A stretch of DNA of 64,000 nucleotides from Escherichia coli (GTDB lineage: Bacteria > Pseudomonadota > Gammaproteobacteria > Enterobacterales > Enterobacteriaceae): assembly GCF_050920415.1 (NCBI RefSeq), contig NZ_CP169309.1, one strand, 5' to 3'. Below, in pieces: positions 13,297-61,859 of this stretch. Numbering within the stretch: the stretch's first letter is position 1; the number at the start of each line of letters is the position of its first letter. The notes under the pieces were generated by a model that worked only from the letters and a program-made list of their open reading frames with translations, was not told where the DNA came from and did not search any database. The position numbers and the translations under genes are program-made.

Positions 13297-14343
13297 ATGC
13301 TGAGCAGAGAGGACTTTTACATGATAAAGCAAATGCGCCAGCAAGGTGCGTATATTGTTGATATTGCCACTCAGGTTGGTTGCTCTGAGCGGACTGTCAG
13401 ACGGTACCTGAAATACCCGGAACCTCCGGCCAGAAAAACACGCCACAAAATGGCCAAACTCAAGCCGTTCATGGACTATATCGACATGCGTCTGGCTGAG
13501 AATGTCTGGAACGGCGAGGTCATCCTGGCGGAAATCAAAGCGATGGGTTATACCGGTGGCCGTTCCATGTTGCGTTACTACATCCAGCCCAAACGTAAGA
13601 TGCGGCCATCGAAGAAAACGGTTCGCTTCGAAACTCAGCCCGGTTACCAGCTACAGCATGACTGGGGAGAAGTTGAGGCTGAGGTTGCCGGGCAACGATG
13701 CAGGGTTAACTTCGCGGTTAATACGCTGGGGTTCTCACGTCGCTTCCATGTCTTCGCGGCACCAAAGCAGGATGCTGAACATACCTATGAGTCACTGGTC
13801 CGCGCCTTTCGCTACTTCGGCGGCAGCGTGAAAACCGTGCTGGTCGATAACCAGAAAGCCGCAGTGCTGAAAAATAACAACGGGAAGGTGGTGTTCAACT
13901 CCGGGTTCCTGCTGCTGGCCGATCACTATGGCTTCCTGCCACGGGCCTGCCGTCCACGAAGGGCCAGAACCAAAGGTAAGGTGGAACGGATGGTGAAATA
14001 CCTCAAGGAAAACTTCTTCGTCCGGTACCGCCGGTTCGACAGCTTCGCCCATGTTAATCAGCTACTGGAGCAGTGGATGGCTGACGTTGCCGACAGGCGG
14101 GAACTTCGCCAGTTCAGGCAGACACCGGAACAGCGCTTCACGCAGGAACAGGTGCATCTGCAGGCGCTGCCAGGTACGGACTTCGATACCAGCTACTTCG
14201 ATATCCGTCATGTCTCCTGGGATGGCTATATCGAGGTTGGCGGGAACCGTTACAGCGTGCCGGAAAGCCTGTGTGGCCAGCCGGTATCAATACGGATCTC
14301 GCTGGATGATGAACTGCGATTTACAGTAATGAGCAACAGGTAG
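13297..14343 (+). CDS. istA: IS21-family transposase IstA, apparently frameshifted near its 3' end
   Basis: HTH N-terminus and DDE-like core. The ORF stops at 14343, but another frame continues ...[13 protein letters not shown] to a TGA at 14466-14468 that overlaps the istB ATG, the usual istA/istB junction. Confidence 0.7.
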   Translation: MLSREDFYMIKQMRQQGAYIVDIATQVGCSERTVRRYLKYPEPPARKTRHKMAKLKPFMDYIDMRLAENVWNGEVILAEIKAMGYTGGRSMLRYYIQPKRKMRPSKKTVRFETQPGYQLQHDWGEVEAEVAGQRCRVNFAVNTLGFSRRFHVFAAPKQDAEHTYESLVRAFRYFGGSVKTVLVDNQKAAVLKNNNGKVVFNSGFLLLADHYGFLPRACRPRRARTKGKVERMVKYLKENFFVRYRRFDSFAHVNQLLEQWMADVADRRELRQFRQTPEQRFTQEQVHLQALPGTDFDTSYFDIRHVSWDGYIEVGGNRYSVPESLCGQPVSIRISLDDELRFTVMSNR

Positions 14344-14455
14344 CATCGCACCGTCTCTGTTCGGCTGTATACGGCTGGCAGACCGTGCCGGAGCATCACG
14401 CCCCACTCTGGCAGCAGGTCAGTCAGGTGGAACACAGGCCGTTGAGTGCCTATGA

Positions 14456-15262
<807 letters not shown>

Positions 15263-16915: not shown

Positions 16916-17128
16916 TTATAAAAAATCCTGAATACATTGGTCCATCTGAAATGAATTGAAATTTATCCCATGCTGACTATTCATTTCATAAATCAACGTT
17001 TCACCAAAACTTGTTAATGACAAAGTTCCTTTGGATGTATTACATAAAAAATAATTATTTCCTGCGTTTAGAGTCCAGGGAATTCCAGATAAAAAAATAA
17101 AAATTAATGCTCTATCTATATTGCTCAT
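16916..17128 (-). CDS. Hypothetical small protein downstream of the orphan toxin fragment; possible immunity-gene remnant
   Basis: 70-aa ORF whose start overlaps the end of the orphan toxin ORF; AT-rich; no recognisable motif. Confidence 0.25.
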   Translation of the reverse strand: MSNIDRALIFIFLSGIPWTLNAGNNYFLCNTSKGTLSLTSFGETLIYEMNSQHGINFNSFQMDQCIQDFL

Positions 17129-18290
17129 AATTAGCCCTTATTCTGTCATCATATCCTCGCTGACTTTGCCCATTATAACATAGAGCAAAGTTAAGCCAAT
17201 CTTTATCTCTAATAGCACGCAATAATACAGGATTAGATTTTATGAAGTTAATGAATGCCGCCAGATGGTTTTTCTCTGACTCTGAAATCGATATTATAAA
17301 CTCTTCGGGCGAAGAGTACCCGGCAGCTTGGTAATTTGAAGCCAATATCTGAAATTTACCCCACGATGCCGATTTAAGCGCAGCTTGCTTATCTAAAACA
17401 TATGCACGAAGTAATTTTTGATATTGCTCCGATCGTGTTCCATAACCGCCAGAACGGCTGTTGGAAATATCAGGTTGAGAATCATACACACCATTCGTAT
17501 ATCGATGGAAATGATGTCTTTCAAAAAGAATTGAGGGGACGTAATCATCTTCTTGTTCAAATTTAAAATAGCTACCGGAACTACCAGTTTCAGTTTTTGC
17601 AACAGCTTTAATTGCAGCCACTTCGCATTGTAGTGTCCTTGCAGCATTTTCATAGTCTGCATCATCAATGGTATCTCCGTTATAAAATCGTAAAAATTCC
17701 AATGGAATAAGTTCATTATTTACAGGAGTTTTTGGGTAATTGCTATTATTAATAGCATTCAAAAACACAACCGGATGAAAATGCCACACAGCATCATCAC
17801 TATTAAACGGAGACACCCCGCTCATCCACTCCAGATCCAGCTGCCACTTTTCACAGTATGCCACTTCCTCGGGTCCAGATCTTTATAAAACCCTTCCCAG
17901 CGTCCCGTCGAGCGACCGCCGTACCACTCGCTGTGGTGTCTGACTGTCAGACGATTCACCACATTTCTCACCAGTGGTTCACGCACGGTCAGCGCCTGTC
18001 TGATCTCTTCCTCCGTCACTTTTCCATCACCGTCCTGATCCATACCCGCCATCAGCTCACGATAAAAGGGCGGTACCTGCTCATACAGCCACTCATCTCC
18101 CTGTTCTGCGGCACGGCTTATTGAGTCAAACGCTTCCGGCACCCATCCTTCGTACGGGCTGTACGTCATGTCACCGCTGCTGTTCTCCTCCAGCGGCTGA
18201 AAACCCAGCTTCAGTAAATCATACTGTCCGGCCTCTTCAACATCCTTCTGTGGCAGCCAGCCGGTTCCGGTGATATTAAGCCGCCTCTGG
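17112..18290 (-). pseudogene. Orphan 3' fragment of a VgrG-linked effector paralogue: EF-hand linker plus an alternative C-terminal muramidase-like domain, frameshifted near 17860
   Basis: ORFs 17822-18391 and 17112-17864 are collinear with residues about 383-556 of the 829-aa effector at 19290-21779 (NITGTGWLPQKDVEEAGQ...DQDGDGKVTEEE...AYCEKWQLDLEWMSGVSPFNSDDAVWHFHPVVFL), then diverge into a different C-terminal domain (...FERHHFHRYT...SWGKFQILASNY...). Confidence 0.55.
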
Positions 18291-18572
18291 TTTCCTTTTA
18301 ATAAAGCACTCGTGAAATTTTGCAGGACTGATACAGGATACAACTCTGGCAATGGTATCGTGAACAGGAATACCATTATCAAAATCACCATATTGCTTCA
18401 AAAAATCGAGATGTGTTTCCCCAAAATCCTCTATATCTTCCCAGCCTTCTGCACCCGAAATAACGGCACAAATAGTCAACAGTAGAATATCCGATAATTT
18501 ATGTTGCACTTTCCAGGCTTGTCTGTAATCGGGGATAATAGAAATATGTCCCATCAATTTTTTAAGTTCCAT
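18276..18572 (-). pseudogene. H-repeat (ISAs1-family) transposase N-terminal fragment, about 90 codons, fused to the orphan toxin fragment
   Basis: [60 protein letters not shown]... matches the N-terminus of H-rpt transposases; a second copy with its upstream sequence is repeated at about 16150-16600. Confidence 0.6.
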
Positions 18573-18873
18573 TTTGTTCTCCTTAATTATGTAAGGAGTA
18601 TTTGATCATGTATAAGCAATAAAAAACAGCTTTAGGTAATGAGGAATATCTCAATTTTCAAACATAAAATGCGAATTGTCTAGTACAAAAAAGCAGCGTT
18701 ACGTGATCTTTCCCTGCCTGCCTGTACGATATCCCTCAAAAATAATTTTCCAGTCAGTTATTCATGTCTAACTTAAAATCATAAAACATTTAAATTAATA
18801 ATAAACAAATTCAACCTAGTCGCATTATTATTTTAATAACACAGCATCGATTTCATAAAAAACTGCACAATGG

Positions 18874-19284
18874 TCATCCAGTCCATTTGCAATCAGTACC
18901 ATCATCATTATATGCCTCAATATTTTCTTCAAACTCAGTTGTTTTCCCACTTATTGATTTATAATGAAACAAATTAAATCTTGCACCTTGTGTGGAAACA
19001 ACATACAACCCATTAATTTTTCCATTTACAACCTCGCTCCATGCATAAGAAAATTCAGAAGGCCTGTCATCGAAAGTCACTTCTAATTTATTTATAAACG
19101 CAAGAGGTATAAATTTTGAGGATTTCTCATAAATCACATAACCTAAAAAAATATCGCCAGACGATATTTCAACAAACTTTAAATTTGTTTTCCCAGCGCT
19201 AAAACAGCCTACCGTTGTTTGTTGTTTAGCCAATAAACAACAAGGCACCAAACAAAACAGTAAAACCAATAAGTTAACTTTCAT
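18874..19284 (-). CDS. Small secreted protein, putative immunity protein for the effector at 19290-21779
   Basis: N-terminal Sec-type signal peptide MKVNLLVLLFCLVPCCLLA; GGAG ribosome-binding site; starts 5 bp after the effector stop; AT-rich. Confidence 0.5.
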   Translation of the reverse strand: MKVNLLVLLFCLVPCCLLAKQQTTVGCFSAGKTNLKFVEISSGDIFLGYVIYEKSSKFIPLAFINKLEVTFDDRPSEFSYAWSEVVNGKINGLYVVSTQGARFNLFHYKSISGKTTEFEENIEAYNDDGTDCKWTG

Positions 19285-19289
19285 ATCAA

Positions 19290-21779
19290 TTACTCCAGTT
19301 CAGTTATTCGTCTCTCTACAAATGTGGATATATTCCTTTTTTCTATTCCATATACTTTTCTATCACCCTCACGCCCTTCCTGAGGAAACGGATGCAGGTC
19401 AATTAATTCTTTCGCCCTTCTATAACCTTTTAATGCTTCTTCGTTACTCTTGATCGTCCCTCTTCGGGAGCTATCAGGATCATGCCATATCCCCCATCCC
19501 AAAGCATATACTTTATTATCATATACGTCACTATCATCAAACAAGAAATCGTCGTTCATTGCTTTCTGATTTAAATGCTCGGCAGCAAGTGAGGTAACCA
19601 ATTTATTAAATATCGACAACCGTTCATCATAATGATTATACCCTCCATTAATCACTGCTGTAATTTTATTAAAATCATCATTTTTAGCATCTTCATTTAT
19701 TCTTTTGAATATATTGAAATACCAAAACGCAGATAATACGCAATGTGGGGAGGATATAAGTTTATCTCTTGCGGAATCTGAAGATGTTACGTCCTCATTG
19801 ATATATTCCCCATAGGCGGTGTAATTACTTTCCCCTGTAACTTGTATTAAGCCTCGGCCATACCACGGACTATATGAAGCTGATTCACCATTAATTTCTT
19901 TGGTATATCTAAAATAACCGCTCTCGTGAATAATTTGAGCAAGAAAATGGGCTTTTTCTCTACAAGTGGTCATACCAAACCGAATAAACCCTGCATTTAT
20001 ATCGTAGAGGTACCTTTTGAGAAGACCTTCACTTACTGCAGGAGCAACTTTTTTTAATTCATCTAATGTTATATCTCTGTTGCAAGCACACACAGATTTG
20101 GAATTAATAGCGTCCAAAAACACAACCGGATGAAAATGCCACACAGCATCATCACTATTAAACGGAGATACCCCGCTCATCCACTCCAGATCCAGCTGCC
20201 ACTTCTCACAGTATGCCACTTCCTCTGTGTCCAGATCTTTATAAAATCCTTCCCACCGCCCTGTCGAGCGCCCTCCGTACCATTCGCTGTGGTGTTTAAC
20301 TATCAGATGATTCACCACATTTCTCACCAGTGGTTCACGCACGGTCAGCGCCTGTCTGATCTCTTCCTCCGTCACTTTTCCATCACCGTCCTGATCCATA
20401 CCCGCCATCAGCTCACGATAAAAGGGCGGTACCTGCTCATACAGCCACTCATCTCCCTGTTCTGCGGCACGGCTTATTGAGTCAAACGCTTCCGGCACCC
20501 ATCCTTCGTACGGGCTGTACGTCATGTCACCGCTGCTGTTCTCCTCCAGCGGTTGAAAACCCAGCTTCAGTAAATCATACTGTCCGGCCTCTTCAACATC
20601 CTTTTGTGGCAGCCAGCCGGTTCCGGTGATATTAAACCACCACTGCTGCGATTCATCCGTGATCGGTGTCGTGGCTTCCCGCGGAAGAACGCGCTGAGCA
20701 CCCAGTGTGGCTGCGGTTGCGGTAAATACCTCCTGTCCCGGAACGGCCTGCCGGGTGTATAAAATTATCCCTTTTGGTGCCAGAACAGTCCGTTTTTCTC
20801 CCTTAACGCCTGCCGGGTTGGATAAGAACTTTGGCATATTCGGGTCTGTACTCAGAACCTCCAGATGGACGAACCACTCGCGCTCAATCTCACCGCTTCC
20901 CTCGCCAGGATAATCCTCGCATCCCATAAATCCGACCGGTGTTCCGGCACTGACTTTCCACTCTTCCGTTTCGTCGACCGTCTGTACCGAGTCAAAAATG
21001 CCTTTTGCCTTCGCCTTCTGCATCCACTCAGGCATCAGCATCTGTATTTCGCCATCTGACTCCATCAGATCCGGATCCAGGGTCACCCAGTACTGCTCAT
21101 TCCCCGGTTTATTGCCTTCCAGCAGGCGAACCAGTCCGAATGTCGTCAGGACCGGCTGGCCGTTATTGGTCACGTAAAAACGTCCGGTCCGGGATGACAC
21201 AAACCGATCTCCCGCATTAAGTGTCCTGTTTCCGCTGATTTTCGGGGGTATCCAGTACGTGGCATGATCTCCGCTTTCCTGCCCCTCGGGAAGGCCGTTC
21301 TTTCCCGGGATGTATCGGTGCAGCAATATGCCACCATGCCCGGTTTTAACTTTATAGCAGGGGGAGCCGGGATAATCGTTCACCGGGGCCAGATGCATAT
21401 AGAGACAGTAAAATTCCAGCCAGCTTTCTTTTTTTTGCGGGTCTGGCTGGCACTGCGATTTCACCAGAACAAATGTGCTGCTGTAACGGAGTTGCTGCCC
21501 TTTGTAGGTGCCTTTCAGGTAATCATTATTTATCCGGTACGCCGCAATGGTGCCATCGGCCATAAACTGAAGAGGAACCGGTTCTCCGGTAGCGGCGGTA
21601 TCCGGTTTCAGGGCTGATAACGGATTAGACACGTCACTGATATGTATCCCGCCGTGCCACAGCCCGTTTCCACCCAGCAGCCAGGTTCCGTGCGCTTCTT
21701 TGTCAATAAGCCGCATTATCTCATCCAGCGAGCGAAACTCTTTGCCTTCTTTATCCCTGATGGGATGGCTGATTTTCAT
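19290..21779 (-). CDS. VgrG-linked multidomain putative T6SS effector (829 aa): N-terminal M23-like region, EF-hand loop, C-terminal GH19-like glycoside hydrolase
   Basis: Starts 9 bp after the vgrG stop. WHGGIHI, LYMHL and GTPVGFMG...FVHLEV resemble M23 (lysostaphin/LytM) motifs; DQDGDGKVTEEE is a canonical 12-residue EF-hand loop; AHFLAQIIHESG...YGRGLIQVTGESNY resembles GH19 signatures. No signal peptide. Confidence 0.6.
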   Translation of the reverse strand: MKISHPIRDKEGKEFRSLDEIMRLIDKEAHGTWLLGGNGLWHGGIHISDVSNPLSALKPDTAATGEPVPLQFMADGTIAAYRINNDYLKGTYKGQQLRYSSTFVLVKSQCQPDPQKKESWLEFYCLYMHLAPVNDYPGSPCYKVKTGHGGILLHRYIPGKNGLPEGQESGDHATYWIPPKISGNRTLNAGDRFVSSRTGRFYVTNNGQPVLTTFGLVRLLEGNKPGNEQYWVTLDPDLMESDGEIQMLMPEWMQKAKAKGIFDSVQTVDETEEWKVSAGTPVGFMGCEDYPGEGSGEIEREWFVHLEVLSTDPNMPKFLSNPAGVKGEKRTVLAPKGIILYTRQAVPGQEVFTATAATLGAQRVLPREATTPITDESQQWWFNITGTGWLPQKDVEEAGQYDLLKLGFQPLEENSSGDMTYSPYEGWVPEAFDSISRAAEQGDEWLYEQVPPFYRELMAGMDQDGDGKVTEEEIRQALTVREPLVRNVVNHLIVKHHSEWYGGRSTGRWEGFYKDLDTEEVAYCEKWQLDLEWMSGVSPFNSDDAVWHFHPVVFLDAINSKSVCACNRDITLDELKKVAPAVSEGLLKRYLYDINAGFIRFGMTTCREKAHFLAQIIHESGYFRYTKEINGESASYSPWYGRGLIQVTGESNYTAYGEYINEDVTSSDSARDKLISSPHCVLSAFWYFNIFKRINEDAKNDDFNKITAVINGGYNHYDERLSIFNKLVTSLAAEHLNQKAMNDDFLFDDSDVYDNKVYALGWGIWHDPDSSRRGTIKSNEEALKGYRRAKELIDLHPFPQEGREGDRKVYGIEKRNISTFVERRITELE

Positions 21780-21788
21780 GTTCAGTCC

Positions 21789-23990
21789 TTATCGTGAGAA
21801 TCTTCCCGGCCGTTGTGGCGGTACCTTATCCTGCTGGGGAGGATCAAAGGCTTCCTGTACATTTTTCCGTGGTGGCTCCGCCCCTTCAGTTCCAGGTCCG
21901 CCATTGTCATAATCTGCCAGCGCTTTCAAAACCGCCGGTCGTAGTGTCGGCACCGGCGTTCCCGGACTACCGCCGCTATTGAGATTGATTTTCGGCCCGA
22001 CGATGTCCACGCCCCCTGAATGGATGACCACAAACGAACCACCCACCTTCAGGGTGATTTTACCGCCACTCTCCAGTACGATTTCATCCCGGACCTTCAT
22101 TCCCAGCGCACCGGTAATCTTCCTCGCCAGGTCGCCCTTCACCTCCAGACTGTGCGTTCCCTCCACCAGACTGATATGGTTCCCCGTCGTCTTATGCTCC
22201 TGCTTCCCTTCCACCGTCACTTTACGGTCGTTTCTGACATACAGGCCGTCATCGTGACTCACGCTCACCGTCCGGTCATTCGTCACCTTCAGCGTCTGGT
22301 CATTACGTACCGTTATGCGCCGGTCGTTCGCCACCGTGATACTCTGGTCGTGGCCCCCTTCTTTTCTGGTGCCGACCTCAACCGTCTGCCCCTTCACCAC
22401 CCTTATCTTCTGGTCGTTACCGATGGTCTCCGTATGGTCATGCTTCACGTCCGTCGTCCGGTCGTTAAGCACCTCCGTGTCCATGTTCTTCTGCGCGTGG
22501 ATATACACCTGCTCACTGTCCGTCGCATCCTCGAAACGCAGTTCATTAAAGCCGCTTCCTTTATAGGTCTTCGAGCGGATGGTCATCTGCGTCCGCGTGC
22601 CCGGTAAATCCCCCGGTGAACGGTTATCTTCATGGTAGGTCCGCCCCGTCACAATGGGCTGGTCCGGGTCGCCGTTCAGAAAGTCCACTATCACTTCCTG
22701 ACCCACACGCGGTATCGCCAGATTGCCGAACCCCGGTCCCGCCCATGCCTGCGACACCCGTATCCAGCATGAACTCTCCTCCGTCATCCCGTGATAACGG
22801 TCCCAGTGAAACTTCACCCGTACCCGGCCATGCTCGTCGCAGAATATCTCCTCGCCCTTCGGCCCGGTCACGATGGCACTCTGCGGGCCGTCCACCTTCG
22901 GCTTCGGCAGGGGCTGTGAGCGCCAGGTCCGGTCTGCCGGGATGACCGTGATATGGTTACTCAGTGTCGTTCCCCTCCCCTGGCTCCCGTGCAGCGCCTG
23001 CGGCTGGCTCCCCGTCAGCGTGCTGCTCACCACCTGCCACTCACGGTTCGGGTTCGCTCCCTGTACCGGATGCCCCGTCAGGGTGAACCGCCGTCCCGGC
23101 CACAGCGCCGGGGAGTTACTGATACCTGTGGCGGTTTCAGCACTGTTACGCAGCCCTTCCAGCCGGTAGCGGGTAAAGTCCTGACCATGCTGCTCGTCCT
23201 TGTAGCGCCCCGGCCAGTCCAGGATTTTGTACTGCTTCAGTTGCTCGTTGAGGTTTTCAGCATCCTCAATGTAAATACCCGGCCAGTCCGGCACCTTAAA
23301 CGTGTGGTCTTTTGAACGCACCTGCGAGGGCCGCACCTGCGCCTGGTAGCGGAACAGGCTGATGCACGCCGTCGTCACCTCACGGGTGTTCGGGTTAAAC
23401 GGTATCTCCCCGTACACCGGCAGGCCCGCCACATCATCGCACAGCGTGAGCGTCTGCTCCGGGCTGTCGTCAGCGTATCTGTCATAAAAGAAGATGCCTT
23501 CCTCCGCCCACAGCCGGGTCAGAAACGCCAGGTCGCTTTCACCGTACTGGACGCAGAACTCCCGTGCCGGGTGGCTCTCATAAAAGCGCGGCGTCCACTG
23601 CGTCACTCCGTCCTCGTTTAACAGCGTGGCGGAGATGGCCTGAATGTCCTGCTGCTGGAAGATTCGGTAGTTCTGCCGCAGCCCGCTGCGCCACAGGGGC
23701 GGGCGTATCTGAAGGTGGTACTGCATCTGCCAGCCGTTGTGCTCCTTCATGCCTAACCCCGACACCACACCGCTCACATAACGCAGCGCCGTGCCACCCT
23801 GCCAGATGGTCAGCACGGCCCCCTTCTCCAGCAGCTTCTCCGCCGTCTGGCGGAACGAGTCGCTGGCAACGTCCACATCCAGGACGAACGGCGATGAGTA
23901 TGCCTGCGTGAGGCGGAAATCCACCACCGCGAACGTCTCCGGCACCAGTCCGTCCACCGTCAGCGTAAAACGCAGCCCTTTTAATGACAT
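21789..23990 (-). CDS. vgrG: Type VI secretion spike protein VgrG (733 aa)
   Basis: MSLKGLRFTLTVDGL... N-terminus, gp27/gp5-like core with beta-helix repeats (VRNDQTLKVTNDRTVSVSHDD...), GGAGG-type RBS. Confidence 0.9.
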   Translation of the reverse strand: MSLKGLRFTLTVDGLVPETFAVVDFRLTQAYSSPFVLDVDVASDSFRQTAEKLLEKGAVLTIWQGGTALRYVSGVVSGLGMKEHNGWQMQYHLQIRPPLWRSGLRQNYRIFQQQDIQAISATLLNEDGVTQWTPRFYESHPAREFCVQYGESDLAFLTRLWAEEGIFFYDRYADDSPEQTLTLCDDVAGLPVYGEIPFNPNTREVTTACISLFRYQAQVRPSQVRSKDHTFKVPDWPGIYIEDAENLNEQLKQYKILDWPGRYKDEQHGQDFTRYRLEGLRNSAETATGISNSPALWPGRRFTLTGHPVQGANPNREWQVVSSTLTGSQPQALHGSQGRGTTLSNHITVIPADRTWRSQPLPKPKVDGPQSAIVTGPKGEEIFCDEHGRVRVKFHWDRYHGMTEESSCWIRVSQAWAGPGFGNLAIPRVGQEVIVDFLNGDPDQPIVTGRTYHEDNRSPGDLPGTRTQMTIRSKTYKGSGFNELRFEDATDSEQVYIHAQKNMDTEVLNDRTTDVKHDHTETIGNDQKIRVVKGQTVEVGTRKEGGHDQSITVANDRRITVRNDQTLKVTNDRTVSVSHDDGLYVRNDRKVTVEGKQEHKTTGNHISLVEGTHSLEVKGDLARKITGALGMKVRDEIVLESGGKITLKVGGSFVVIHSGGVDIVGPKINLNSGGSPGTPVPTLRPAVLKALADYDNGGPGTEGAEPPRKNVQEAFDPPQQDKVPPQRPGRFSR

Positions 23991-24145
23991 GATGACCTCC
24001 CTGGTATTGCTACAGGAAAAAGTAATTAACCGATATTGACCGTACCTTCTGATATTCTCTCACTGATTCATTATCTGTATTTCCCATGAACATTCTCATT
24101 TCAACAGGAAAACCAACGAATTGTAGCCATGACAATAAGTTAACA

Positions 24146-25060
24146 TTAATAATTCCTCAACGAATAAGGAGGAGATGCCCTGTCCCCATCAATAGTAACC
24201 ACGACCTGATTTGATCTTATTTTGAATATATTATCATTACCGCCATGATAGCCAAATCGTGCTAAAAAATCCTGAAATAGACCAGGTCCTCTATAAGGTC
24301 CACAGATTCTCCAAACCCGCCACTCCTCTATGCCATACGTTATTTTATCTATAGGATTAGTACACTCTCTTTCTGCCCGCCAGTTCATAATAGAAAGAAA
24401 ATACTCATATATATATTGTTCTGCAAACCACTCTTGATTAACTATTGTAAATTCTACCGTCCCTATATTATAACGATGAATGCCCGGTAAAAAGGCATAA
24501 TAATCGTTCAATGTGACATCAAAGGATAGCTCTTTCCCTGGTAATATCTCGCGCCAAACAGATTTACTTTTCCATTCACCAAAGCTACATTTTGTTTTTT
24601 TTAAAAAATCCAACTGAATGTTATCCATTATCGGTATAAACACACCACTACACAAGGAAGAGTAAGGCCCGCCGTTAACGTCAAGAGGAAGAGTTAGTCG
24701 ATGAACAAAATAAGATCCCTGGCTTTTATTCGATAAAACCACTGCAGCTGCTACAATATTTTCTTTCTGATGCACGGAAAGATGAAGATATATTTTATTT
24801 TTATCCTGATTATACTGACTCTCATTTTTACTGATAGTATAATATTGAAAAACAGCATAGGCTGAAAGATCATCATAATAATCATAATAATTAAGCCTTG
24901 TCGGTTCTACACGAGGATAGACACCAAGTTTTTCCATTACTCCATTCCAATGTAACTTCCCATATCTGTAATGAACCGCATAATCGCCAGAGATATCATA
25001 AGCAAATATTGGATGCACCCAAGAAAAAAAAGCAATAAAAACAATCCATCTAGCAAGCAT
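24146..25060 (-). CDS. Secreted protein with Sec signal peptide, putative immunity protein for the HExxH effector
   Basis: Start placed at the ATG at 25058-25060 (strong GGGGGAG RBS), giving MLARWIVFIAFFSWVHPIFA as signal peptide; 25 bp after the effector stop. Confidence 0.5.
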   Translation of the reverse strand: MLARWIVFIAFFSWVHPIFAYDISGDYAVHYRYGKLHWNGVMEKLGVYPRVEPTRLNYYDYYDDLSAYAVFQYYTISKNESQYNQDKNKIYLHLSVHQKENIVAAAVVLSNKSQGSYFVHRLTLPLDVNGGPYSSLCSGVFIPIMDNIQLDFLKKTKCSFGEWKSKSVWREILPGKELSFDVTLNDYYAFLPGIHRYNIGTVEFTIVNQEWFAEQYIYEYFLSIMNWRAERECTNPIDKITYGIEEWRVWRICGPYRGPGLFQDFLARFGYHGGNDNIFKIRSNQVVVTIDGDRASPPYSLRNY

Positions 25061-25084
25061 ATACTCCCCCGTCAAATAAAAGCA

Positions 25085-25930
25085 TCAATATGGTACAGGA
25101 ATCTCGAAATAACGTTCGATATTATATGCATTCTGAAACAGTTCTGATTTTTTATCATTTTTTAATTTAGTGGCATGAGCAATATATTCGTCACCTGTAC
25201 TATACTCTATATCTACCGGCATATCTTCCGTCCACATGCCTCCAAACTTAAGTGAATCCCCGTACCTTATAAAGTGAGATAGTTCATGGCAGAGTGTCGA
25301 TGCCTTAGAGTTTTCCCCAGTGAATGGCCTATCTATAAATCTTTGTCCTATAGTTATACTTACCAAACTTTTAAAGCTTCCAGATTTTACACCCAAAATC
25401 TGATCGTAAGTTACATTGGCAGCATAAGCGTCATTATCTGTACAATTCACAAAGTTACCAATTTTGGGCCTGATTACGTCTTTGTCAACATATTCATTAC
25501 CCCCTTTGTCATTAAGAACAAGATTACAATTGGCATCACGTTTGAGGAAATGGTCATGAACGGTAACGTCTACACAATCACCTTCCACAGATAATTCCCC
25601 ACATATCTCATACAGGCGAGTAACGCCATTTCTCATATAATCCCTTGCCTTTATATTCTCTGTAAACAGAGTATTACGCCCCCCGAAAGGGAACTTTAAT
25701 TTAATATAAGTATTTCCATCAATGCCAAATATATTTATAAATTCCTGATTTTGTTCCGCCCCCCATTTATCACCAAGATCTTCTACTCTTTTTTTCAATA
25801 CAGCCATCTGCGCCTTCAGAGCCTCTCTCATCATTATTTTAAAATCATTAGTAATTTTCCCCTCCTTTAAAACTACACACTGTTCACCACTCTGGCTTTT
25901 TCCGCTCGTACTACCCTTTTCATCTCCCAT
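25085..25930 (-). CDS. VgrG-linked putative zinc-metallopeptidase-like effector (281 aa, HExxH)
   Basis: CHELSHF (HExxH) at residues 215-219, with a possible downstream Asp ligand in STGDEY; hydrophilic N-terminus with no signal peptide; AAGGAGGA RBS; 81 bp after the vgrG stop. Confidence 0.5.
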   Translation of the reverse strand: MGDEKGSTSGKSQSGEQCVVLKEGKITNDFKIMMREALKAQMAVLKKRVEDLGDKWGAEQNQEFINIFGIDGNTYIKLKFPFGGRNTLFTENIKARDYMRNGVTRLYEICGELSVEGDCVDVTVHDHFLKRDANCNLVLNDKGGNEYVDKDVIRPKIGNFVNCTDNDAYAANVTYDQILGVKSGSFKSLVSITIGQRFIDRPFTGENSKASTLCHELSHFIRYGDSLKFGGMWTEDMPVDIEYSTGDEYIAHATKLKNDKKSELFQNAYNIERYFEIPVPY

Positions 25931-26011
25931 ATAAATCCTCCTTGGTATATATTTTCACTACAAACCCTGTTCCATTTATGCAAAAACACGCCAATTACAG
26001 GCGGTCACTCT

Positions 26012-28324
26012 CTATTCATTAATCCCTCCCCATATCATATCGATATTCAAATGCAACAATCTGACGTCTATTGTCTGCTCGCTGTCAGTGGTGAATATTT
26101 CCGTATACCCATCCTTATCCGTTTCTCCGCGGGTCTGCGTGCCGTCCTCAAAGAAGGCAATGTAGCGTGTCTCTGAATACGGTATCCCGTCATCGTCTGT
26201 AAAATGGAACTGGAGAGTATATTTTTCAGGGTTCTCATCATCATTCTCATCCTCCAGCGCCTCCAGTACAACCGGTTGCAGCGTCGATACTGGCGTCCCC
26301 GGACCTCCCCCACCATTCAGGTTTATCTTCGGCCCCACTATATCCACGCCGCCAGAGTGTATCACCACGAACGAACCGCCCGCTTTCAGGCTTATCTGGC
26401 TGCTGCTCTCCAGCACGATATCCCCGTCCACCTTTATCCCCAGCGCGCCACTCACCTTCTCCGCCAGGTCACCCTTCACCTCCAGGCTGTGTTTCCCCTC
26501 CACCAGGCTGATATGGTTTCCCGTCGTCTTATGCTCCTGCTTCCCTTCCACCGTCACTTTACGGTCGTTTCTGACATACAGGCCGTCATCGTGACTCACG
26601 CTCACCGTCCGGTCATTCGTCACCTTCAGCGTCTGGTCATTACGTACCGTTATGCGCCGGTCGTTCGCCACCGTGATACTCTGGTCGTGACCCCCTTCTT
26701 TTCTGGTGCCGACCTCAACCGTCTGCCCCTTCACCACCCTTATCTTCTGGTCGTTACCGATGGTCTCCGTATGGTCATGCTTCACGTCCGTCGTCCGGTC
26801 GTTAAGCACCTCCGTGTCCATGTTCTTCTGCGCGTGGATATACACCTGCTCACTGTCCGTCGCATCCTCGAAACGCAGTTCATTAAAGCCGCTTCCTTTA
26901 TAGGTCTTCGAGCGGATGGTCATCTGCGTCCGCGTGCCCGGTAAATCCCCCGGTGAACGGTTATCTTCATGGTAGGTCCGCCCCGTCACAATGGGCTGGT
27001 CCGGGTCGCCGTTCAGAAAGTCCACTATCACTTCCTGACCCACACGCGGTATCGCCAGATTGCCGAACCCCGGTCCCGCCCATGCCTGCGACACCCGTAT
27101 CCAGCATGAACTCTCCTCCGTCATCCCGTGATAACGGTCCCAGTGAAACTTCACCCGTACCCGGCCATGCTCGTCGCAGAATATCTCCTCACCCTTCGGC
27201 CCGGTCACGATGGCACTCTGCGGGCCGTCCACCTTCGGCTTCGGCAGCGGCGCGTGACGCCACGTCCTGTCTGCCGGTATCACCTCAAACTGATTGCTCA
27301 GTGTCGTCCCTTCACCGTGACTCCCGTGCAGCGCCTGCGGCTGTTCTCCCCGCAGTGTGCTTCCCACAACCTGCCATTCCCGGTTCAGCGTCGCTGACGG
27401 ATGGCCCGTCAGCCGGAACCGCGTTCCCGGCCACAGCCGCGCCGTGTTACACACCCCGCTCGCCGTCTCCGCCCCGTTCCGCCACCCTTCCGTCTGGTAA
27501 CGCGCAAAATCCTGGCCATGCTGCTCATCCTTGAAACGCCCCGGATAATCAAATATCTCGTACTGCGTTCCCTGTCCGTTCAGGCTCTCCCCGTCATGGC
27601 TGTAGTACCCCGGCCACCCCGGCGTTTTGAACGTATAATCCTGCGTCTCCACCGACGCCACGCTTATCTGCGCACGGTAACGGAAGTCGCGGATGTACTC
27701 TGTCGTGCCTCCGGTCGTGGTATTCGGGTTAAACGCCAGCGCCCCCATTCCCGTCAGCCCCGCCACGTCATCACACACCGCCAGCTTCTGTTCCGGCCCG
27801 TCCTGACTGCAGCGTTCATAAAAGAAGATACCTTCCTCCGCCCACAGCCGGGTCAGGAATGTCAGGTCGCTCTCCCCGTACTGCACGCAGAACTCCCGCG
27901 CCGGGTGCGCCTCATAGAACAGCGGCATCCACGCCGTCACCCCGTTCTCTTCAAGAAGCTGCGCTGATATCGTCTGAATGTCCTGCTGCTGGAAGATACG
28001 GAAGTTCTGCCGTAACCCTGCCCGCCACAGCGGCGGGCTGATGCTCAGGGAATAACGCATCTGCCAGTCGTTGTTCTCACCGAGCTGCACCTCTGTCACG
28101 ATACCGCTGACGTAACGCTGTGCAGTGTCGCCCTGCCAGACCGTCAGCACCGCGCTTTTCTCCAGAAAATCTTCTGCCGTCAGGTCAGACAGTCCGCTGG
28201 CGATATCCACATCCAGGATGAACGGTGTGCAGTGGTGCTGGTACAGACGGAAGCTCACCACCGCCGTCGCCATCTCCACAATACCGTCCACCGACAGCGT
28301 GAAACGTAATCCTTCTGCTGCCAT
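26012..28324 (-). CDS. vgrG: Type VI secretion spike protein VgrG with a divergent acidic C-terminal extension (about 770 aa)
   Basis: Start set at MAAEGLRFTLSVDG (ATG at 28322-28324); core nearly identical to the vgrG at 21789-23990; C-terminal 100 aa (...EDENDDENPEKYTLQFHFTDDDGIPYSE...) is unique. Confidence 0.9.
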   Translation of the reverse strand: MAAEGLRFTLSVDGIVEMATAVVSFRLYQHHCTPFILDVDIASGLSDLTAEDFLEKSAVLTVWQGDTAQRYVSGIVTEVQLGENNDWQMRYSLSISPPLWRAGLRQNFRIFQQQDIQTISAQLLEENGVTAWMPLFYEAHPAREFCVQYGESDLTFLTRLWAEEGIFFYERCSQDGPEQKLAVCDDVAGLTGMGALAFNPNTTTGGTTEYIRDFRYRAQISVASVETQDYTFKTPGWPGYYSHDGESLNGQGTQYEIFDYPGRFKDEQHGQDFARYQTEGWRNGAETASGVCNTARLWPGTRFRLTGHPSATLNREWQVVGSTLRGEQPQALHGSHGEGTTLSNQFEVIPADRTWRHAPLPKPKVDGPQSAIVTGPKGEEIFCDEHGRVRVKFHWDRYHGMTEESSCWIRVSQAWAGPGFGNLAIPRVGQEVIVDFLNGDPDQPIVTGRTYHEDNRSPGDLPGTRTQMTIRSKTYKGSGFNELRFEDATDSEQVYIHAQKNMDTEVLNDRTTDVKHDHTETIGNDQKIRVVKGQTVEVGTRKEGGHDQSITVANDRRITVRNDQTLKVTNDRTVSVSHDDGLYVRNDRKVTVEGKQEHKTTGNHISLVEGKHSLEVKGDLAEKVSGALGIKVDGDIVLESSSQISLKAGGSFVVIHSGGVDIVGPKINLNGGGGPGTPVSTLQPVVLEALEDENDDENPEKYTLQFHFTDDDGIPYSETRYIAFFEDGTQTRGETDKDGYTEIFTTDSEQTIDVRLLHLNIDMIWGGINE

Positions 28325-28539
28325 ATAAACCCCATAGCTACCGCACTCATAGTGCAAACCATACGGGCTTATAAGAAAGGCTTAAGTGAGATATCTGCCA
28401 GATAGCAACTATTAGGAAAATATTTATATCACCATGATAAATATGTGATTTATTGGGAGATAACAAACCATCAACATTTTCTGCCCTTTTTCCCATCACC
28501 AGGCCATACTGATATTTTTCCTCGCACAAAGGACTCGGC

Positions 28540-54604: not shown

Positions 54605-55897
<1,293 letters not shown>

Positions 55898-57348: not shown

Positions 57349-59379
57349 TTACTGTTGCCCCGCCCAGACGACCAGCACTTTATCGTCGTCATGCTCACGA
57401 ACAAAGCCGTAGCCCTGCTTCAGCGAAAGTGTCGTTTGTTTGCCCGCGCCAATTGCGGGATGGCGGGCGCGGAACTGGCTGATTTTCTGCCAGTGCGCGA
57501 CGCTAGCGGCAGATTTACCGCTAACATCCTGCCAGTTCATATCCGAACGCGTGCCTTGCAGCGGATCAGAACCGGTAGGACCGAACGGACGAGAGGATTC
57601 ATCACCATAAAAGATTTGTACTGCACCTGGCGCTAATAACAATAACTCTGCTGCTTTGTCGCCCCCTTCACGAAACAAACGAGTATCATGCGACGAAAGA
57701 TAGCTCAACACGTTGAAATCCTGCAATTTCTCTGCCATTTGCTGCCAGGTCGTATCCATCTGCGCCAGACAATCGACTGCTTTAGCCGCCTGCTCCTGAT
57801 AATCGAAATTGATCATCGCATCGAAGCCGTGGCGATAGTAGTCACTTTGCATCACGCCGTGGCCCCAGGCTTCACCGGTCATCCAGAACGGTTTGTCATC
57901 TAACGCTTTATCGGGATTCGCTTTTTTCCATTCGACAAGCGCGGCGCTGGCTTCGGTTTTCAGTTGCTGCCAGGCGGGCAACTCAACATGCTTGGCGGTA
58001 TCGACCCGAAAACCATCAATTCCGTAGTCACGGACCCACTGGCTTAACCAATGGGTTAAGTAATCTCGAGGGGTAAAGCCGTCAATGGCTTTAGCGTGGG
58101 TATCCGTTTTGTTGTTATAGAACACTGGCAGGCCAGAAGCGGTAGTTGATTCGGTTTTGATATCCGGTAAAAAGGCCAGCGACATGGTGAGATCGTCAAA
58201 TCCAGGATTGTCGTAGTCGCCGATATCCGTTCTGATCCAGTTTTTTCCCCACCATTTATCCCAGCCTGTTTTGTCGCTGAAATTAATGTAATCGTTAAAG
58301 CTATGCCAGGTTTGTCCGGCGGCGGGCTTCCAGTCGCTCCAACGGTCACCTAACGTTTTTTTCACTTCGTCACCAGAAAGATATAACGCGCCAAACTGAT
58401 ACTCCTGCATATCCGCCAGTGTGGCATAGCCGGTGTGGTTCATCACGACATCAAAGAGAATACGAATACCGCGCTGATGCGCGCTATCAACCAGCGTCCG
58501 TAGATCGGCTTCGCTGCCCATATTGGCATCAAGATTCGTCCAGTCCTGGGTGTAATAACCGTGGTAGGCATAATGCGGGAAATCGCCTTTTGTACCGCCA
58601 CCGACCCAGCCGTGAATTTGCTCAAATGGGGCACTTATCCATAAAGCATTGACGCCCAGCTGCTGGAGGTAATCCAGTTTGTTGGTCAGGCCGCGTAAAT
58701 CGCCGCCGTGAAAAGTGCCAATTTCTGCCATACCGTCTTTATGACGTCCGTAACTCTGGTCATTACTGGGATCGCCGTTTTCGAAACGATCTGTCAGCAC
58801 GAAGTAAACCGTGGCGTTATGCCAGTCGAAAGGGGCGGATGTGTCAGTTTCTGCCCGTTCCAGCAGGAGTAAACCGTTGCTGGTGGCAGCGGGTTGTAAC
58901 GTTATTTGACCGTTCTTCACTATCGCAATTTGCTGGCTGTAATAATCCCGGACTGCGGCTCCCTCCGGAAAAGTGGCGCTGACATCCAGTGTGAGCGGTA
59001 ATCCATCCCATTTCGGGCATTCACGGACCAGGCTTGCTACCGGTTCGACGGTGTTCTGGATGGAAATCATCAATGTTGGTGTACCGGAGCGGGTGTCTAG
59101 TTGCAGCGTATATTCGCCGTCCCTGAACAATCGCCATTGAGGTGGCGTGTTGCTACAAGGTTGCAGGGAAAGCATCTGATTGAGTTTTATCGCATCCGCA
59201 GGCTGCCAGCACTGTTGGTCAAAATTTAGCGTTAGTGGACGCGTACCTTTGGGCAACTGCGCGTGGCTGACAAATGTTCCCGTTCCCTGTTCGCTAAAGG
59301 CAGGGAACCCCGGAGAAGTCCAGCTGGCGGCAACGGCGAAGCCAGGAAGGAGTGTCAGAAAACAGGCGGCGAGTTTCAT
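57349..59379 (-). CDS. malS: Periplasmic alpha-amylase (676 aa)
   Basis: Signal peptide MKLAACFLTLLPGFAVA; GH13 catalytic regions (GFRVDTAKH; FVDNHD-like SSHD). Confidence 0.9.
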   Translation of the reverse strand: MKLAACFLTLLPGFAVAASWTSPGFPAFSEQGTGTFVSHAQLPKGTRPLTLNFDQQCWQPADAIKLNQMLSLQPCSNTPPQWRLFRDGEYTLQLDTRSGTPTLMISIQNTVEPVASLVRECPKWDGLPLTLDVSATFPEGAAVRDYYSQQIAIVKNGQITLQPAATSNGLLLLERAETDTSAPFDWHNATVYFVLTDRFENGDPSNDQSYGRHKDGMAEIGTFHGGDLRGLTNKLDYLQQLGVNALWISAPFEQIHGWVGGGTKGDFPHYAYHGYYTQDWTNLDANMGSEADLRTLVDSAHQRGIRILFDVVMNHTGYATLADMQEYQFGALYLSGDEVKKTLGDRWSDWKPAAGQTWHSFNDYINFSDKTGWDKWWGKNWIRTDIGDYDNPGFDDLTMSLAFLPDIKTESTTASGLPVFYNNKTDTHAKAIDGFTPRDYLTHWLSQWVRDYGIDGFRVDTAKHVELPAWQQLKTEASAALVEWKKANPDKALDDKPFWMTGEAWGHGVMQSDYYRHGFDAMINFDYQEQAAKAVDCLAQMDTTWQQMAEKLQDFNVLSYLSSHDTRLFREGGDKAAELLLLAPGAVQIFYGDESSRPFGPTGSDPLQGTRSDMNWQDVSGKSAASVAHWQKISQFRARHPAIGAGKQTTLSLKQGYGFVREHDDDKVLVVWAGQQ

Positions 59380-59766
59380 GGCGGATGAGTCCTTATTGCT
59401 GCGATTTCAGACAGTTTGCCAGCGATAAGCCAGACAAAACTCATCCCTGAGCGGTAAGTCCACAGGATGAGAAGCAAGGGTGAGCGATCGCGCGCAAAAA
59501 ACGGCCGAATTTTGCGATAAACCCCACATTTTCTGCGATTTAGCGCCAATCTGAATCGTTAACACGTGACATAGTTTCAGATTTGGACTATTCCTTGGGG
59601 TGCTCTTGACGGCTATTTTTGATATGATTTGAGATTCAACTCTCAAATTTGTGAAAAATATAAGGTGTTGGAATGTAGACTGGCCCCCTGAATCTCCAGA
59701 CAACCAGTATCACTTAAATAAGTGATAGTCTTAATACTAGTTTTTAGACTAGTCATTGGAGAACAG

Positions 59767-60132
59767 ATGATTGATGTCTTAGGGCCGGAGAAACGCAGAC
59801 GGCGTACCACACAGGAAAAGATCGCAATTGTTCAGCAGAGCTTTGAACCGGGGATGACGGTCTCCCTCGTTGCCCGGCAACATGGTGTAGCAGCCAGCCA
59901 GTTATTTCTCTGGCGTAAGCAATACCAGGAAGGAAGTCTTACTGCTGTCGCCGCCGGAGAACAGGTTGTTCCTGCCTCTGAACTTGCTGCCGCCATGAAG
60001 CAGATTAAAGAACTCCAGCGCCTGCTCGGCAAGAAAACGATGGAAAATGAACTCCTCAAAGAAGCCGTTGAATATGGACGGGCAAAAAAGTGGATAGCGC
60101 ACGCGCCCTTATTGCCCGGGGATGGGGAGTAA
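59767..60132 (+). CDS. insC: IS2 OrfA (InsC-like), 121 aa
   Basis: [53 protein letters not shown]... (HTH plus leucine zipper). Confidence 0.85.
60084..60090 (+). other. IS2 programmed -1 ribosomal frameshift heptamer (AAAAAAG)
   Basis: aaaaaag at 60084-60090, in the orfA/orfB overlap. Confidence 0.6.
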
Positions 60133-60995
60133 GCTTAGTCAGCCGTTGTCTCCGGGTGTCGCGTGCGCAGTTGCACGTCATTCTCAGACGAACCGATGAC
60201 TGGATGGATGGCCGCCGCAGTCGTCACACTGATGATACGGATGTGCTTCTCCGTATACACCATGTTATCGGAGAGCTGCCCACGTATGGTTATCGTCGGG
60301 TATGGGCGCTGCTTCGCAGACAGGCAGAACTTGATGGTATGCCTGCGATCAATGCCAAACGTGTTTACCGGATCATGCGCCAGAATGCGCTGTTGCTTGA
60401 GCGAAAACCTGCTGTACCGCCATCGAAACGGGCACATACAGGCAGAGTGGCCGTGAAAGAAAGCAATCAGCGATGGTGCTCTGACGGGTTCGAGTTCTGC
60501 TGTGATAACGGAGAGAGACTGCGTGTCACGTTCGCGCTGGACTGCTGTGATCGTGAGGCACTGCACTGGGCGGTGACTACTGGCGGCTTCAACAGTGAAA
60601 CAGTACAGGACGTCATGCTGGGAGCGGTGGAACGCCGCTTCGGCAACGATCTTCCGTCGTCTCCAGTGGAGTGGCTGACGGATAATGGTTCATGCTACCG
60701 GGCTAATGAAACACGCCAGTTCGCCCGGATGTTGGGACTTGAACCGAAGAACACGGCGGTGCGGAGTCCGGAGAGTAACGGAATAGCAGAGAGCTTCGTG
60801 AAAACGATAAAGCGTGACTACATCAGTATCATGCCCAAACCAGACGGGTTAACGGCAGCAAAGAACCTTGCAGAGGCGTTCGAGCATTATAACGAATGGC
60901 ATCCGCATAGTGCGCTGGGTTATCGCTCGCCACGGGAATATCTGCGGCAGCGGGCTTGTAATGGGTTAAGTGATAACAGATGTCTGGAAATATAG
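60090..60995 (+). CDS. insD: IS2 OrfB (InsD-like) DDE transposase, 301 aa, normally expressed as an OrfAB fusion by -1 frameshifting
   Basis: DDE catalytic core (...WCSDGFEF...LTDNGSCY...E at [12 protein letters not shown]); overlaps orfA in the -1 frame. Confidence 0.85.
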
Positions 60996-61034
60996 GGGCA
61001 AATCCAGAATGATTAAATCCGACCAGGAGACCTG

Positions 61035-61859
61035 ATGATTTTGACTCCCATACGACGATATGGGGCGATGATTCTTATGTTACTCACTCTGGTGTTTTCG
61101 AGTGAGGTGTTAGCGAAGACGCACACAACAACAGCGAGTCAAAAGTCCCACTTAACTAAAGCTAGTAATAAACAGGTAAGCAGTAAACAAGAGTATTCTC
61201 GCAATAGTGCAAAGAGTAGTTCACTTCCTGATTTGCGAAAATACCCTTCCGGAACACCAAGGAAAAAAGCGTTTCTCCGGACCGTAATGCCTTACATTAC
61301 CAGCCAAAATGCGGCCATTACTGCGGAACGTAACTGGCTCATTTCAAAACAGTATCAGGGCCAATGGTCACCTGCTGAGCGTGCGCGTCTGAAAGACATC
61401 GCCAAACGCTACAAGGTGAAGTGGTCCGGTAATACGCGAAAAATCCCGTGGAATACCTTGCTTGAACGCGTAGACATTATTCCTACCAGTATGGTGGCGA
61501 CGATGGCTGCAGCAGAAAGCGGTTGGGGAACGTCGAAGCTGGCGCGTAGCAACAACAACCTATTCGGCATGAAGTGCATGAAAGGACGTTGTACCAATGC
61601 GCCGGGTAAAGTGAAGGGGTACTCACAGTTCAGTTCTGTCAAAGAATCGGTGAGCGCCTATGTCACTAACCTGAATACTCACCCGGCTTACTCTTCGTTC
61701 CGTAAATCGCGTGCACAGCTGCGTAAAGCGGATCAGGAAGTGACTGCCACAGCGATGATTCACAAGCTGAAGGGCTACTCGACCAAAGGGAAGAGTTATA
61801 ACAACTACCTGTTCGCAATGTACCAGGATAACCAACGGTTAATCGCGGCGCATATGTAA
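61035..61859 (+). CDS. bax: Bax protein (glucosaminidase-domain protein), 274 aa
   Basis: N-terminal signal/TM segment, 274 aa, K-12 syntenic position between malS and xylR. Confidence 0.8.
   Translation: MILTPIRRYGAMILMLLTLVFSSEVLAKTHTTTASQKSHLTKASNKQVSSKQEYSRNSAKSSSLPDLRKYPSGTPRKKAFLRTVMPYITSQNAAITAERNWLISKQYQGQWSPAERARLKDIAKRYKVKWSGNTRKIPWNTLLERVDIIPTSMVATMAAAESGWGTSKLARSNNNLFGMKCMKGRCTNAPGKVKGYSQFSSVKESVSAYVTNLNTHPAYSSFRKSRAQLRKADQEVTATAMIHKLKGYSTKGKSYNNYLFAMYQDNQRLIAAHM

Follow-up and report, generated by a model that had tools for sequence, protein, structure and literature searches.

In the stretch of Escherichia coli DNA analysed here (64 kb in all, hereafter the window), a complete copy of IS2 lies within the predicted leader of the baxL-bax operon and physically cuts the operon off from its conserved promoter, from the 5' part of the leader and from the ribosome-binding site of baxL. 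On balance, we think it probable that this insertion has taken bax off its native control, leaving its expression strongly reduced and deregulated, and that the neighboring malS gene is untouched.

By every criterion that could be tested the element is IS2, a member of the IS2 group of the IS3 family. Its parts, and the junctions that it forms with the chromosome, are as follows:

59676-61006, plus strand: IS2 proper, complete, 1331 bp, from T59676 (TAGACTGG...) to A61006 (...GCAAATCCA)
59676..59717, plus strand: IRL, 42 bp, from terminus alignment and the published description (PMC3299598)
59723..59731, plus strand: a feature of the left part of IS2, from the sequence, positioned according to PMC3299598
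59767-60132, plus strand: insC (orfA), 121 aa, with Pfam HTH_Tnp_1 (1.8e-19)
60084-60090, plus strand: A6G (A AAA AAG), programmed -1 frameshift site, in the orfA register (PMC3299598, PMC3219604)
60090-60995, plus strand: insD (orfB), 301 aa, with Pfam rve (1.1e-18), rve_3 and HTH_21
60966..61006, plus strand: IRR, 41 bp, from terminus alignment
59671-59675: target-site duplication GAATG, left copy
61007-61011: target-site duplication GAATG, right copy
59673..59678, plus strand: junction-made start-stop ATGTAG (M*), in which the duplicated baxL ATG runs straight into the TAG with which IRL opens

IRL and IRR align with a single 1-bp difference in length, matching the IS2 ends described in PMC3299598, and orfA and orfB overlap in the 0 and -1 frames, joined by the A6G slippery site. 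At the nucleotide level the element differs from IS2A of K-12 MG1655 at 4 of 1331 positions (99.7% identity), one of these substitutions being at IRL position 32, and both proteins, InsC and InsD, are identical to those of K-12 IS2A (insC1/insD1) with zero residue changes. No second copy of IS2 was found elsewhere in the window. The direct repeat flanking the element is exactly 5 bp long, as flanks of 6-11 bp mismatch. The last base of IS2 is 29 bp from the bax ATG (61035) and only 2 nt from the start codon of baxL (61009-61011), which falls within the right copy of GAATG; on the other side, the first base of IS2 is 297 bp from the malS ATG (59379, minus strand). An earlier note on this DNA, made from the letters alone, had described clear IS2 ends, intact reading frames, an intact A6G heptamer, a 5-bp GAATG duplication and a position 29 bp upstream of bax. 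Each of these descriptions holds: the repeats are those published for IS2, the reading frames encode the K-12 proteins, the heptamer is in the correct orfA frame, and two copies of GAATG stand where the empty site has a single one. Its span for the insertion (59670..61011) does contain IS2 and also takes in one G and both GAATG repeats.

Removing IS2 and one GAATG in silico yields a malS-bax spacer of 600 bp that is 100% identical to that of two E. coli genomes. A comparison with the uninterrupted spacer in other strains, as the earlier note had proposed, covered 5,426 complete E. coli genomes: 5,420 have the empty site without interruption, the other 6 lack an intact empty site, and none of the 5,426 matched a 400-bp query across the left IS2 junction. 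Likewise, a 30-nt pattern spanning the right junction had zero exact matches in a collection of species-representative genomes and in metagenome contigs, and our literature search found no earlier report of any IS insertion at malS/bax. The nearest relative, MFDS1022581 (a food isolate from Korea), is ~99.99% identical and has the site empty. The window is collinear with this genome: the ~56 kb compared hold 6 substitutions and 4 single-base indels, and apart from IS2 the two show no structural difference. The alignment is broken precisely where IS2 begins and ends, its two parts overlapping by 5 bp. The insertion thus appears to be recent and private to this strain among the genomes searched. 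Both the perfect empty site restored by in silico excision and the break of the relative's alignment at the IS2 ends place the insertion far above chance. A misplaced copy of this repeated element at the malS-bax locus is highly improbable: the many identical IS2 copies of the lineage can confuse short-read assemblies, but a misjoin would leave no target-site duplication behind, and here a precise one of 5 bp is found together with IS2 termini that are exact and an empty site that is perfect after in silico excision.

The same IS2 variant is matched at 100% in 20 chromosomal and 11 plasmid places in MFDS1022581 (~31 copies); among genomes that carry IS2 the median is 4 places. With its ends, the GAATG duplication, the reading frames and A6G all intact, the copy in the window is plausibly competent for transposition, as the earlier note had also supposed, and this view is supported by the ~31 identical copies in the relative and by the presence/absence polymorphism between genomes that are ~99.99% identical.

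The DNA into which IS2 has inserted carries the baxL-bax leader, whose parts now lie on the two sides of the element:

59620-59628, plus strand: predicted extended -10, TGaTATGAT (TGATATGAT), of the native baxL-bax promoter, recognised by the conserved pattern TGnTAnnnT
59662-59667, plus strand: baxL Shine-Dalgarno sequence AAGGTG, from the sequence, orphaned by the IS2 that stands between it and baxL
61009-61035, plus strand: baxL upstream ORF (uORF; K-12 b4794), MIKSDQET*, 8 codons, from annotation, identical to K-12
61025-61029, plus strand: bax Shine-Dalgarno sequence AGGAG, from the sequence, within baxL, intact and invariant in the 80-species alignment
61035..61859, plus strand: bax, 274 aa, Glucosaminidase domain, intact (ORF, Pfam)
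61046 (bax +12) and 61201 (bax +167), plus strand: positions of the K-12 premature 3' ends (Term-seq), mapped from the PMC7815308 supplement

The reading frame of baxL is intact and its stop codon overlaps the bax ATG (TGATG), and 1336 bp of inserted DNA now part it from its Shine-Dalgarno sequence, 5' leader and promoter. BaxL has been detected as a tagged protein, and changing its start codon to a stop raises expression of a bax-lacZ fusion (Weaver et al., bioRxiv 10.1101/511675). In LB there is little full-length baxL-bax mRNA; CspD raises its level, and a cspD mutant has less of it during slow growth (PMC9765468, PMC11648934). Term-seq mapped premature 3' ends at K-12 positions 3737166 and 3737011 (Adams et al. 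2021, PMC7815308 supplement), and the equivalents of both lie downstream of IS2 and are kept. Bax is a putative peptidoglycan glucosaminidase.

To place the insertion within this operon we aligned bax loci from 80 species-representative Enterobacteriaceae genomes. An intact baxL uORF (M-x-x-S-D-Q-E-T, ending in a stop that shares bases with the bax ATG in TGATG or TAATG) is present in 74 of the 80 species, and the stretch AAGGTGTTGGAATG, which holds the IS2 target, is almost invariant among them. Further upstream, TGnTAnnnT occurs at -79/-78 from the bax ATG in all 80 species, and its n base takes all four nucleotides; a fixed TGnTAnnnT with a free n base marks an extended -10 promoter, here a predicted one. 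The predicted native start is near 59634-59636, and this promoter now reads into IS2. Given the conserved extended -10 at 59620-59628, we infer that the bax promoter lies on the malS side of the element and that IS2 sits ~40 nt into the transcribed baxL-bax leader. That location is supported independently by translation of baxL, since its Shine-Dalgarno sequence must then be part of the mRNA. The Cappable-seq and SMRT-Cappable-seq supplements hold no entry for bax or malS start sites at this locus in the coordinates of either genome version. The start of a published northern probe, at -63 from the bax AUG, fits the predicted start, and we discounted it since that paper placed its other probes as arbitrary windows of 200 nt.

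We also considered a leader hairpin that would end at the Term-seq 3' end and be split by IS2. A single-sequence fold did place one arm on either side of the element, but a slightly different fragment folded otherwise (z = -2.06), and RNAalifold over the 80 species gave only a weak consensus, of -6.5 kcal/mol with a covariation term of -0.3 and compensatory changes in 2 of 12 pairs, so we do not claim a conserved hairpin. The conservation of the baxL-bax leader, as far as the alignment speaks, is at the level of primary sequence.

These positions bear directly on the claim of the earlier note that IS2 separates the malS and bax promoters. Both the predicted bax promoter and the baxL Shine-Dalgarno sequence are on the malS side of the element, and the target is a deeply conserved leader (baxL in 74/80 species, the extended -10 in 80/80), so that the label "between divergent promoters" would be wrong for this insertion. 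On the malS side the relevant features are:

57349..59379, minus strand: malS, periplasmic alpha-amylase, 676 aa, intact (ORF; annotated in collinear relatives)
59441-59446 (malS sense) and 59465-59470 (opposite sense): MalT-box cores GGATGA, from a motif scan, marking the predicted position of the malS promoter

Expression of malS is MalT-dependent (PMC10223318). Between the MalT-box cores, which lie 62-91 bp from the malS ATG, and IS2 there are at least 205 bp, and malS keeps the whole of its 296-bp upstream stretch; therefore an effect on malS is unlikely, and the gene is probably unaffected by IS2. It is very improbable, then, that IS2 alters malS, bax or both simply by separating two divergent promoters or by removing an activator site. 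The element does lie in the malS-bax intergenic region, and the 296 bp still attached to malS hold further conserved blocks, but no MalT box is farther than ~90 bp from the malS ATG, and IS2 stands only 2 nt from the baxL ATG with the conserved bax promoter and the baxL Shine-Dalgarno sequence behind it.

The sequence of events that we favor is the following. A transposition-competent IS2 would recently have hit the baxL-bax leader, duplicating GAATG and with it the baxL start codon. To the left of the element, the extended -10, part of the 5' leader and the baxL ribosome-binding site would now lead into IRL and an immediate ATG-TAG; to the right, the intact baxL-bax with the bax Shine-Dalgarno sequence would have IS2 sequence alone ahead of it. 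As the promoter, the 5' leader and the baxL Shine-Dalgarno sequence are stranded to the left of IS2, bax would have lost both native transcriptional control and control through the leader. RNA started at the native promoter would enter IS2 at IRL and cross 1.3 kb largely untranslated in the orfB frame, and, by analogy with classical IS polarity, the most likely net effect would be strongly reduced and deregulated bax expression. What bax transcription remained would come from IS2, whether by reading through out of the element's interior or by use of a hybrid promoter, TGGAAA-17-AATGAT, formed at its right end. Transcripts from the latter would begin within baxL and so would escape the uORF, which, following Weaver et al., should favor translation of bax. 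The malS gene and its MalT-dependent promoter would be untouched.

The hybrid promoter deserves separate attention, as IS2 insertions are well documented as sources of outward transcription. An outward -35 in IRR, the right end of IS2, has been described (PMC3219604, PMC9330008), and in the IS2 minicircle a 1-bp junction sets this -35 at the obligatory 17 bp from its partner, a -10 in IRL (PMC3299598, PMC3219604). The resulting minicircle-junction promoter, Pjunc, is described as powerful (PMC3299598, PMC3219604), and the first hexamer of IRL, TAGACT, is its -10. The candidate elements at the bax junction are:

60985-60990, plus strand: outward -35 TGGAAA in IRR, facing bax and identical to the Pjunc -35, placed by the published geometry rule
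61008-61013, plus strand: candidate -10-like AATGAT, a 4/6 match that includes the critical A2 and T6, exactly 17 bp from TGGAAA

AATGAT is the only flank hexamer at 17 bp, and spacings of 16 and 18 bp give matches of only 1/6 and 2/6. In total the candidate TGGAAA-17-AATGAT matches at 8/12 positions, which equals Pjunc (TGGAAA-17-TAGACT) and is below the threshold of 9/12 used in our consensus promoter scan; that scan, run over 59300-61200, accordingly returned zero promoters at 9/12 or better, as well as zero terminators on the plus strand. A transcript from the candidate would start near 61019-61022, about 7 nt downstream of the -10-like hexamer and inside baxL, past its AUG and before the bax Shine-Dalgarno sequence. 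For IS2-ampC, a hybrid promoter formed by this right end of IS2, with a 20-fold increase, is reported in PMC9330008 (citing Jaurin & Normark 1983), and acrEF and neoR are given there as further cases of IS2 activation (PMC9330008). The suggestion of the earlier note that IS2 can make outward hybrid promoters is thus in agreement with the literature, and a candidate at the proper 17-bp spacing is present here. A material contribution of this promoter to bax expression is an appreciable possibility, well short of an even one.

The reading that competes most directly with strong reduction goes further and holds that the hybrid promoter drives bax constitutively from inside baxL, at or above the native level and independently of both the uORF and the leader. 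Much of what has just been described speaks for it: the outward -35 in IRR needs a 17-bp spacer and finds at that distance a single hexamer, with A2 and T6; the 8/12 match is that of a promoter described as powerful; IS2-ampC (20-fold), acrEF and neoR are precedents (PMC9330008); the predicted start at 61019-61022 lies downstream of the baxL AUG and upstream of the bax Shine-Dalgarno sequence; and loss of baxL translation is known to raise bax-lacZ (Weaver et al., bioRxiv 10.1101/511675). Yet AATGAT is without the conserved first T of a -10, and next to IS2 it is not preceded by an extending TG; our consensus scan finds zero promoters at the junction, and the sites of premature 3' ends (bax +12 and +167) are still present, so that we regard constitutive expression of this kind as rather unlikely. 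More speculative still, and to be entertained only with caution, is the extension of this idea to a natural uORF-bypass allele, in which constitutive Bax would replace the conserved arrangement of promoter, uORF and CspD-sensitive attenuation, and which may have been selected in a lineage where IS2 is expanding.

It is also conceivable, if improbable, that the insertion is nearly neutral, with bax driven either by a proximal promoter (TTGTGA-17-TGgAATGAT) in which IS2 has only exchanged one weak -35 for another, or by sufficient read-through. The native TTGTGA-17-AATGAT with its upstream TG is indeed promoter-like, which tells against strong reduction, since IS2 would have swapped only the -35 if this were the main bax promoter; similarly, no intrinsic terminator on the plus strand was seen in IS2, so that transcripts from the native promoter may read through. 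But baxL is translated and regulates bax, which implies that the functional transcripts start upstream of baxL, all 80 species conserve the upstream extended -10, and the insertion takes from the proximal candidate its TG extension. Loss of native control with strongly reduced and deregulated bax expression therefore remains the reading that we prefer. If the outcome is loss of bax function, it would be unremarkable, given that bax is dispensable in nature: in Shigella sonnei, lineages 2 and 3 are fixed for a ~22-kb deletion that takes in xylFGH, xylR, bax, baxL and malS (PMC12795559).

Viewed from the side of the element, the event adds one insertion to those of a lineage in which IS2 is multiplying. 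Viewed from the side of the operon, the strain and MFDS1022581, with its empty site, form a natural near-isogenic pair for the role of the baxL leader in bax expression, and the same pair could show whether the outward -35 of IS2 works with a weak resident -10.

Set beside known systems, the element itself is closest to K-12 IS2A, with which it shares the length of 1331 bp, IRL and IRR of 42 and 41 bp, A6G, the 5-bp duplication and 99.7% nucleotide identity; it differs from IS2A in its four base substitutions, in being a variant shared by the ~31 MFDS1022581 copies, and in its site, which was found in no other genome searched. The right junction resembles those of IS2-ampC, acrEF and neoR in that the end of IS2 provides a low-match outward -35 located 17 bp from a resident -10-like hexamer upstream of a gene. 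In those cases the insertions were selected for raised expression and the effect was shown experimentally, whereas at bax the candidate -10 (AATGAT) is weaker, and the insertion has also removed the native promoter and leader. With Pjunc the candidate shares the TGGAAA -35, the mandatory 17-bp spacing and the 8/12 match, but its -10 is the chromosomal AATGAT rather than the TAGACT of IRL, and it lies at a fixed chromosomal junction rather than at the transient junction of a circle. Finally, when compared with the native baxL-bax operon (Weaver et al. 2019; Adams et al. 2021; Morita et al. 2022 and 2025), the interrupted locus keeps MIKSDQET, the TGATG overlap, the bax Shine-Dalgarno sequence and the 3'-end positions intact, but the uORF is left without its adjacent Shine-Dalgarno sequence, its 5' leader and its promoter. 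As an event, an IS that lands between a gene and its promoter, and that may bring a fusion promoter of its own, is of a textbook kind; what is new is the site, unseen in any other genome searched, the recognition of the target as the conserved baxL leader, and the uORF-bypass geometry of the candidate promoter.

Immediately 3' of the conserved extended -10 of baxL-bax lies an inverted repeat, TTGAGA-N6-TCTCAA (window 59629-59646), baxL being the 8-codon uORF ahead of bax. The repeat is retained in most of the 80 Enterobacteriaceae species compared, and the changes seen in its arms include compensatory ones (GAGG/CCTC, GCGA/TCGC) and some of the G.U type. Two readings are possible: it could serve as an operator that overlaps the start site, or it could form a stem in the RNA, and the second would require transcription to begin upstream of the predicted position. 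The repeat is located on the upstream side of IS2, with its linkage to the promoter preserved.

A block 5' of the bax -10 (59560-59612) is also strongly conserved across the 80 species, with the motifs GTGACATAGTTTC.GA.TTGGACTATT... and GTGCTCTTGA. The hexamer at 59606-59611 within it reads TTGACG in the window, as against a perfect TTGACA in K-12, where the spacing to TATGAT is only 11 bp.

Intact baxL is missing in six of the 80 species representatives (L007, L047, L054, L060, L062 and L067; positions ~1170-1201), the lesions being either a premature stop codon (ATGATTTAA) or the replacement of ATG by ACG, AAG or ATA, and the remaining leader sequence is retained in all six. These loci are natural uORF-less variants and, as such, could inform the function of baxL.

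Elsewhere in the window, comparison with the nearest relative, strain MFDS1022581, concerned the following features:

~54715-55693, minus strand: a copy of IS621 (IS110 family), flanked by ysaA and avtA
~13297-15262, plus strand: ISEc62, IS21-like, interrupting a yibH-like HlyD-family gene
In both strains: YadA-like adhesin gene (1658-aa product)
In both strains: two cassettes of tssI/vgrG, the type VI secretion tip gene, adjoining yibF-selAB

Four single-base indels distinguish the window from MFDS1022581, and each of them falls within an IS transposase gene. The IS621 copy differs from its MFDS1022581 counterpart by two substitutions (54860-54861) and by the loss of one base near 54953 and of another near 55089; these differences break its transposase frame, the longest ORF being 215 aa vs 326 aa, and could reflect either decay or sequencing error. 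In ISEc62, istA carries a 1-bp deletion near 14317 relative to MFDS1022581, and istB has one additional A within the A-run at 14552, which leaves it open (265 aa); the MFDS1022581 istB is annotated as frameshifted.

The accessory genes that the two strains have in common, listed above, lie at 560-5536 (minus strand) and ~17100-28400, and the tssI/vgrG cassettes among them contain internal ~83%-identical repeats as well as ISAs1 remnants.
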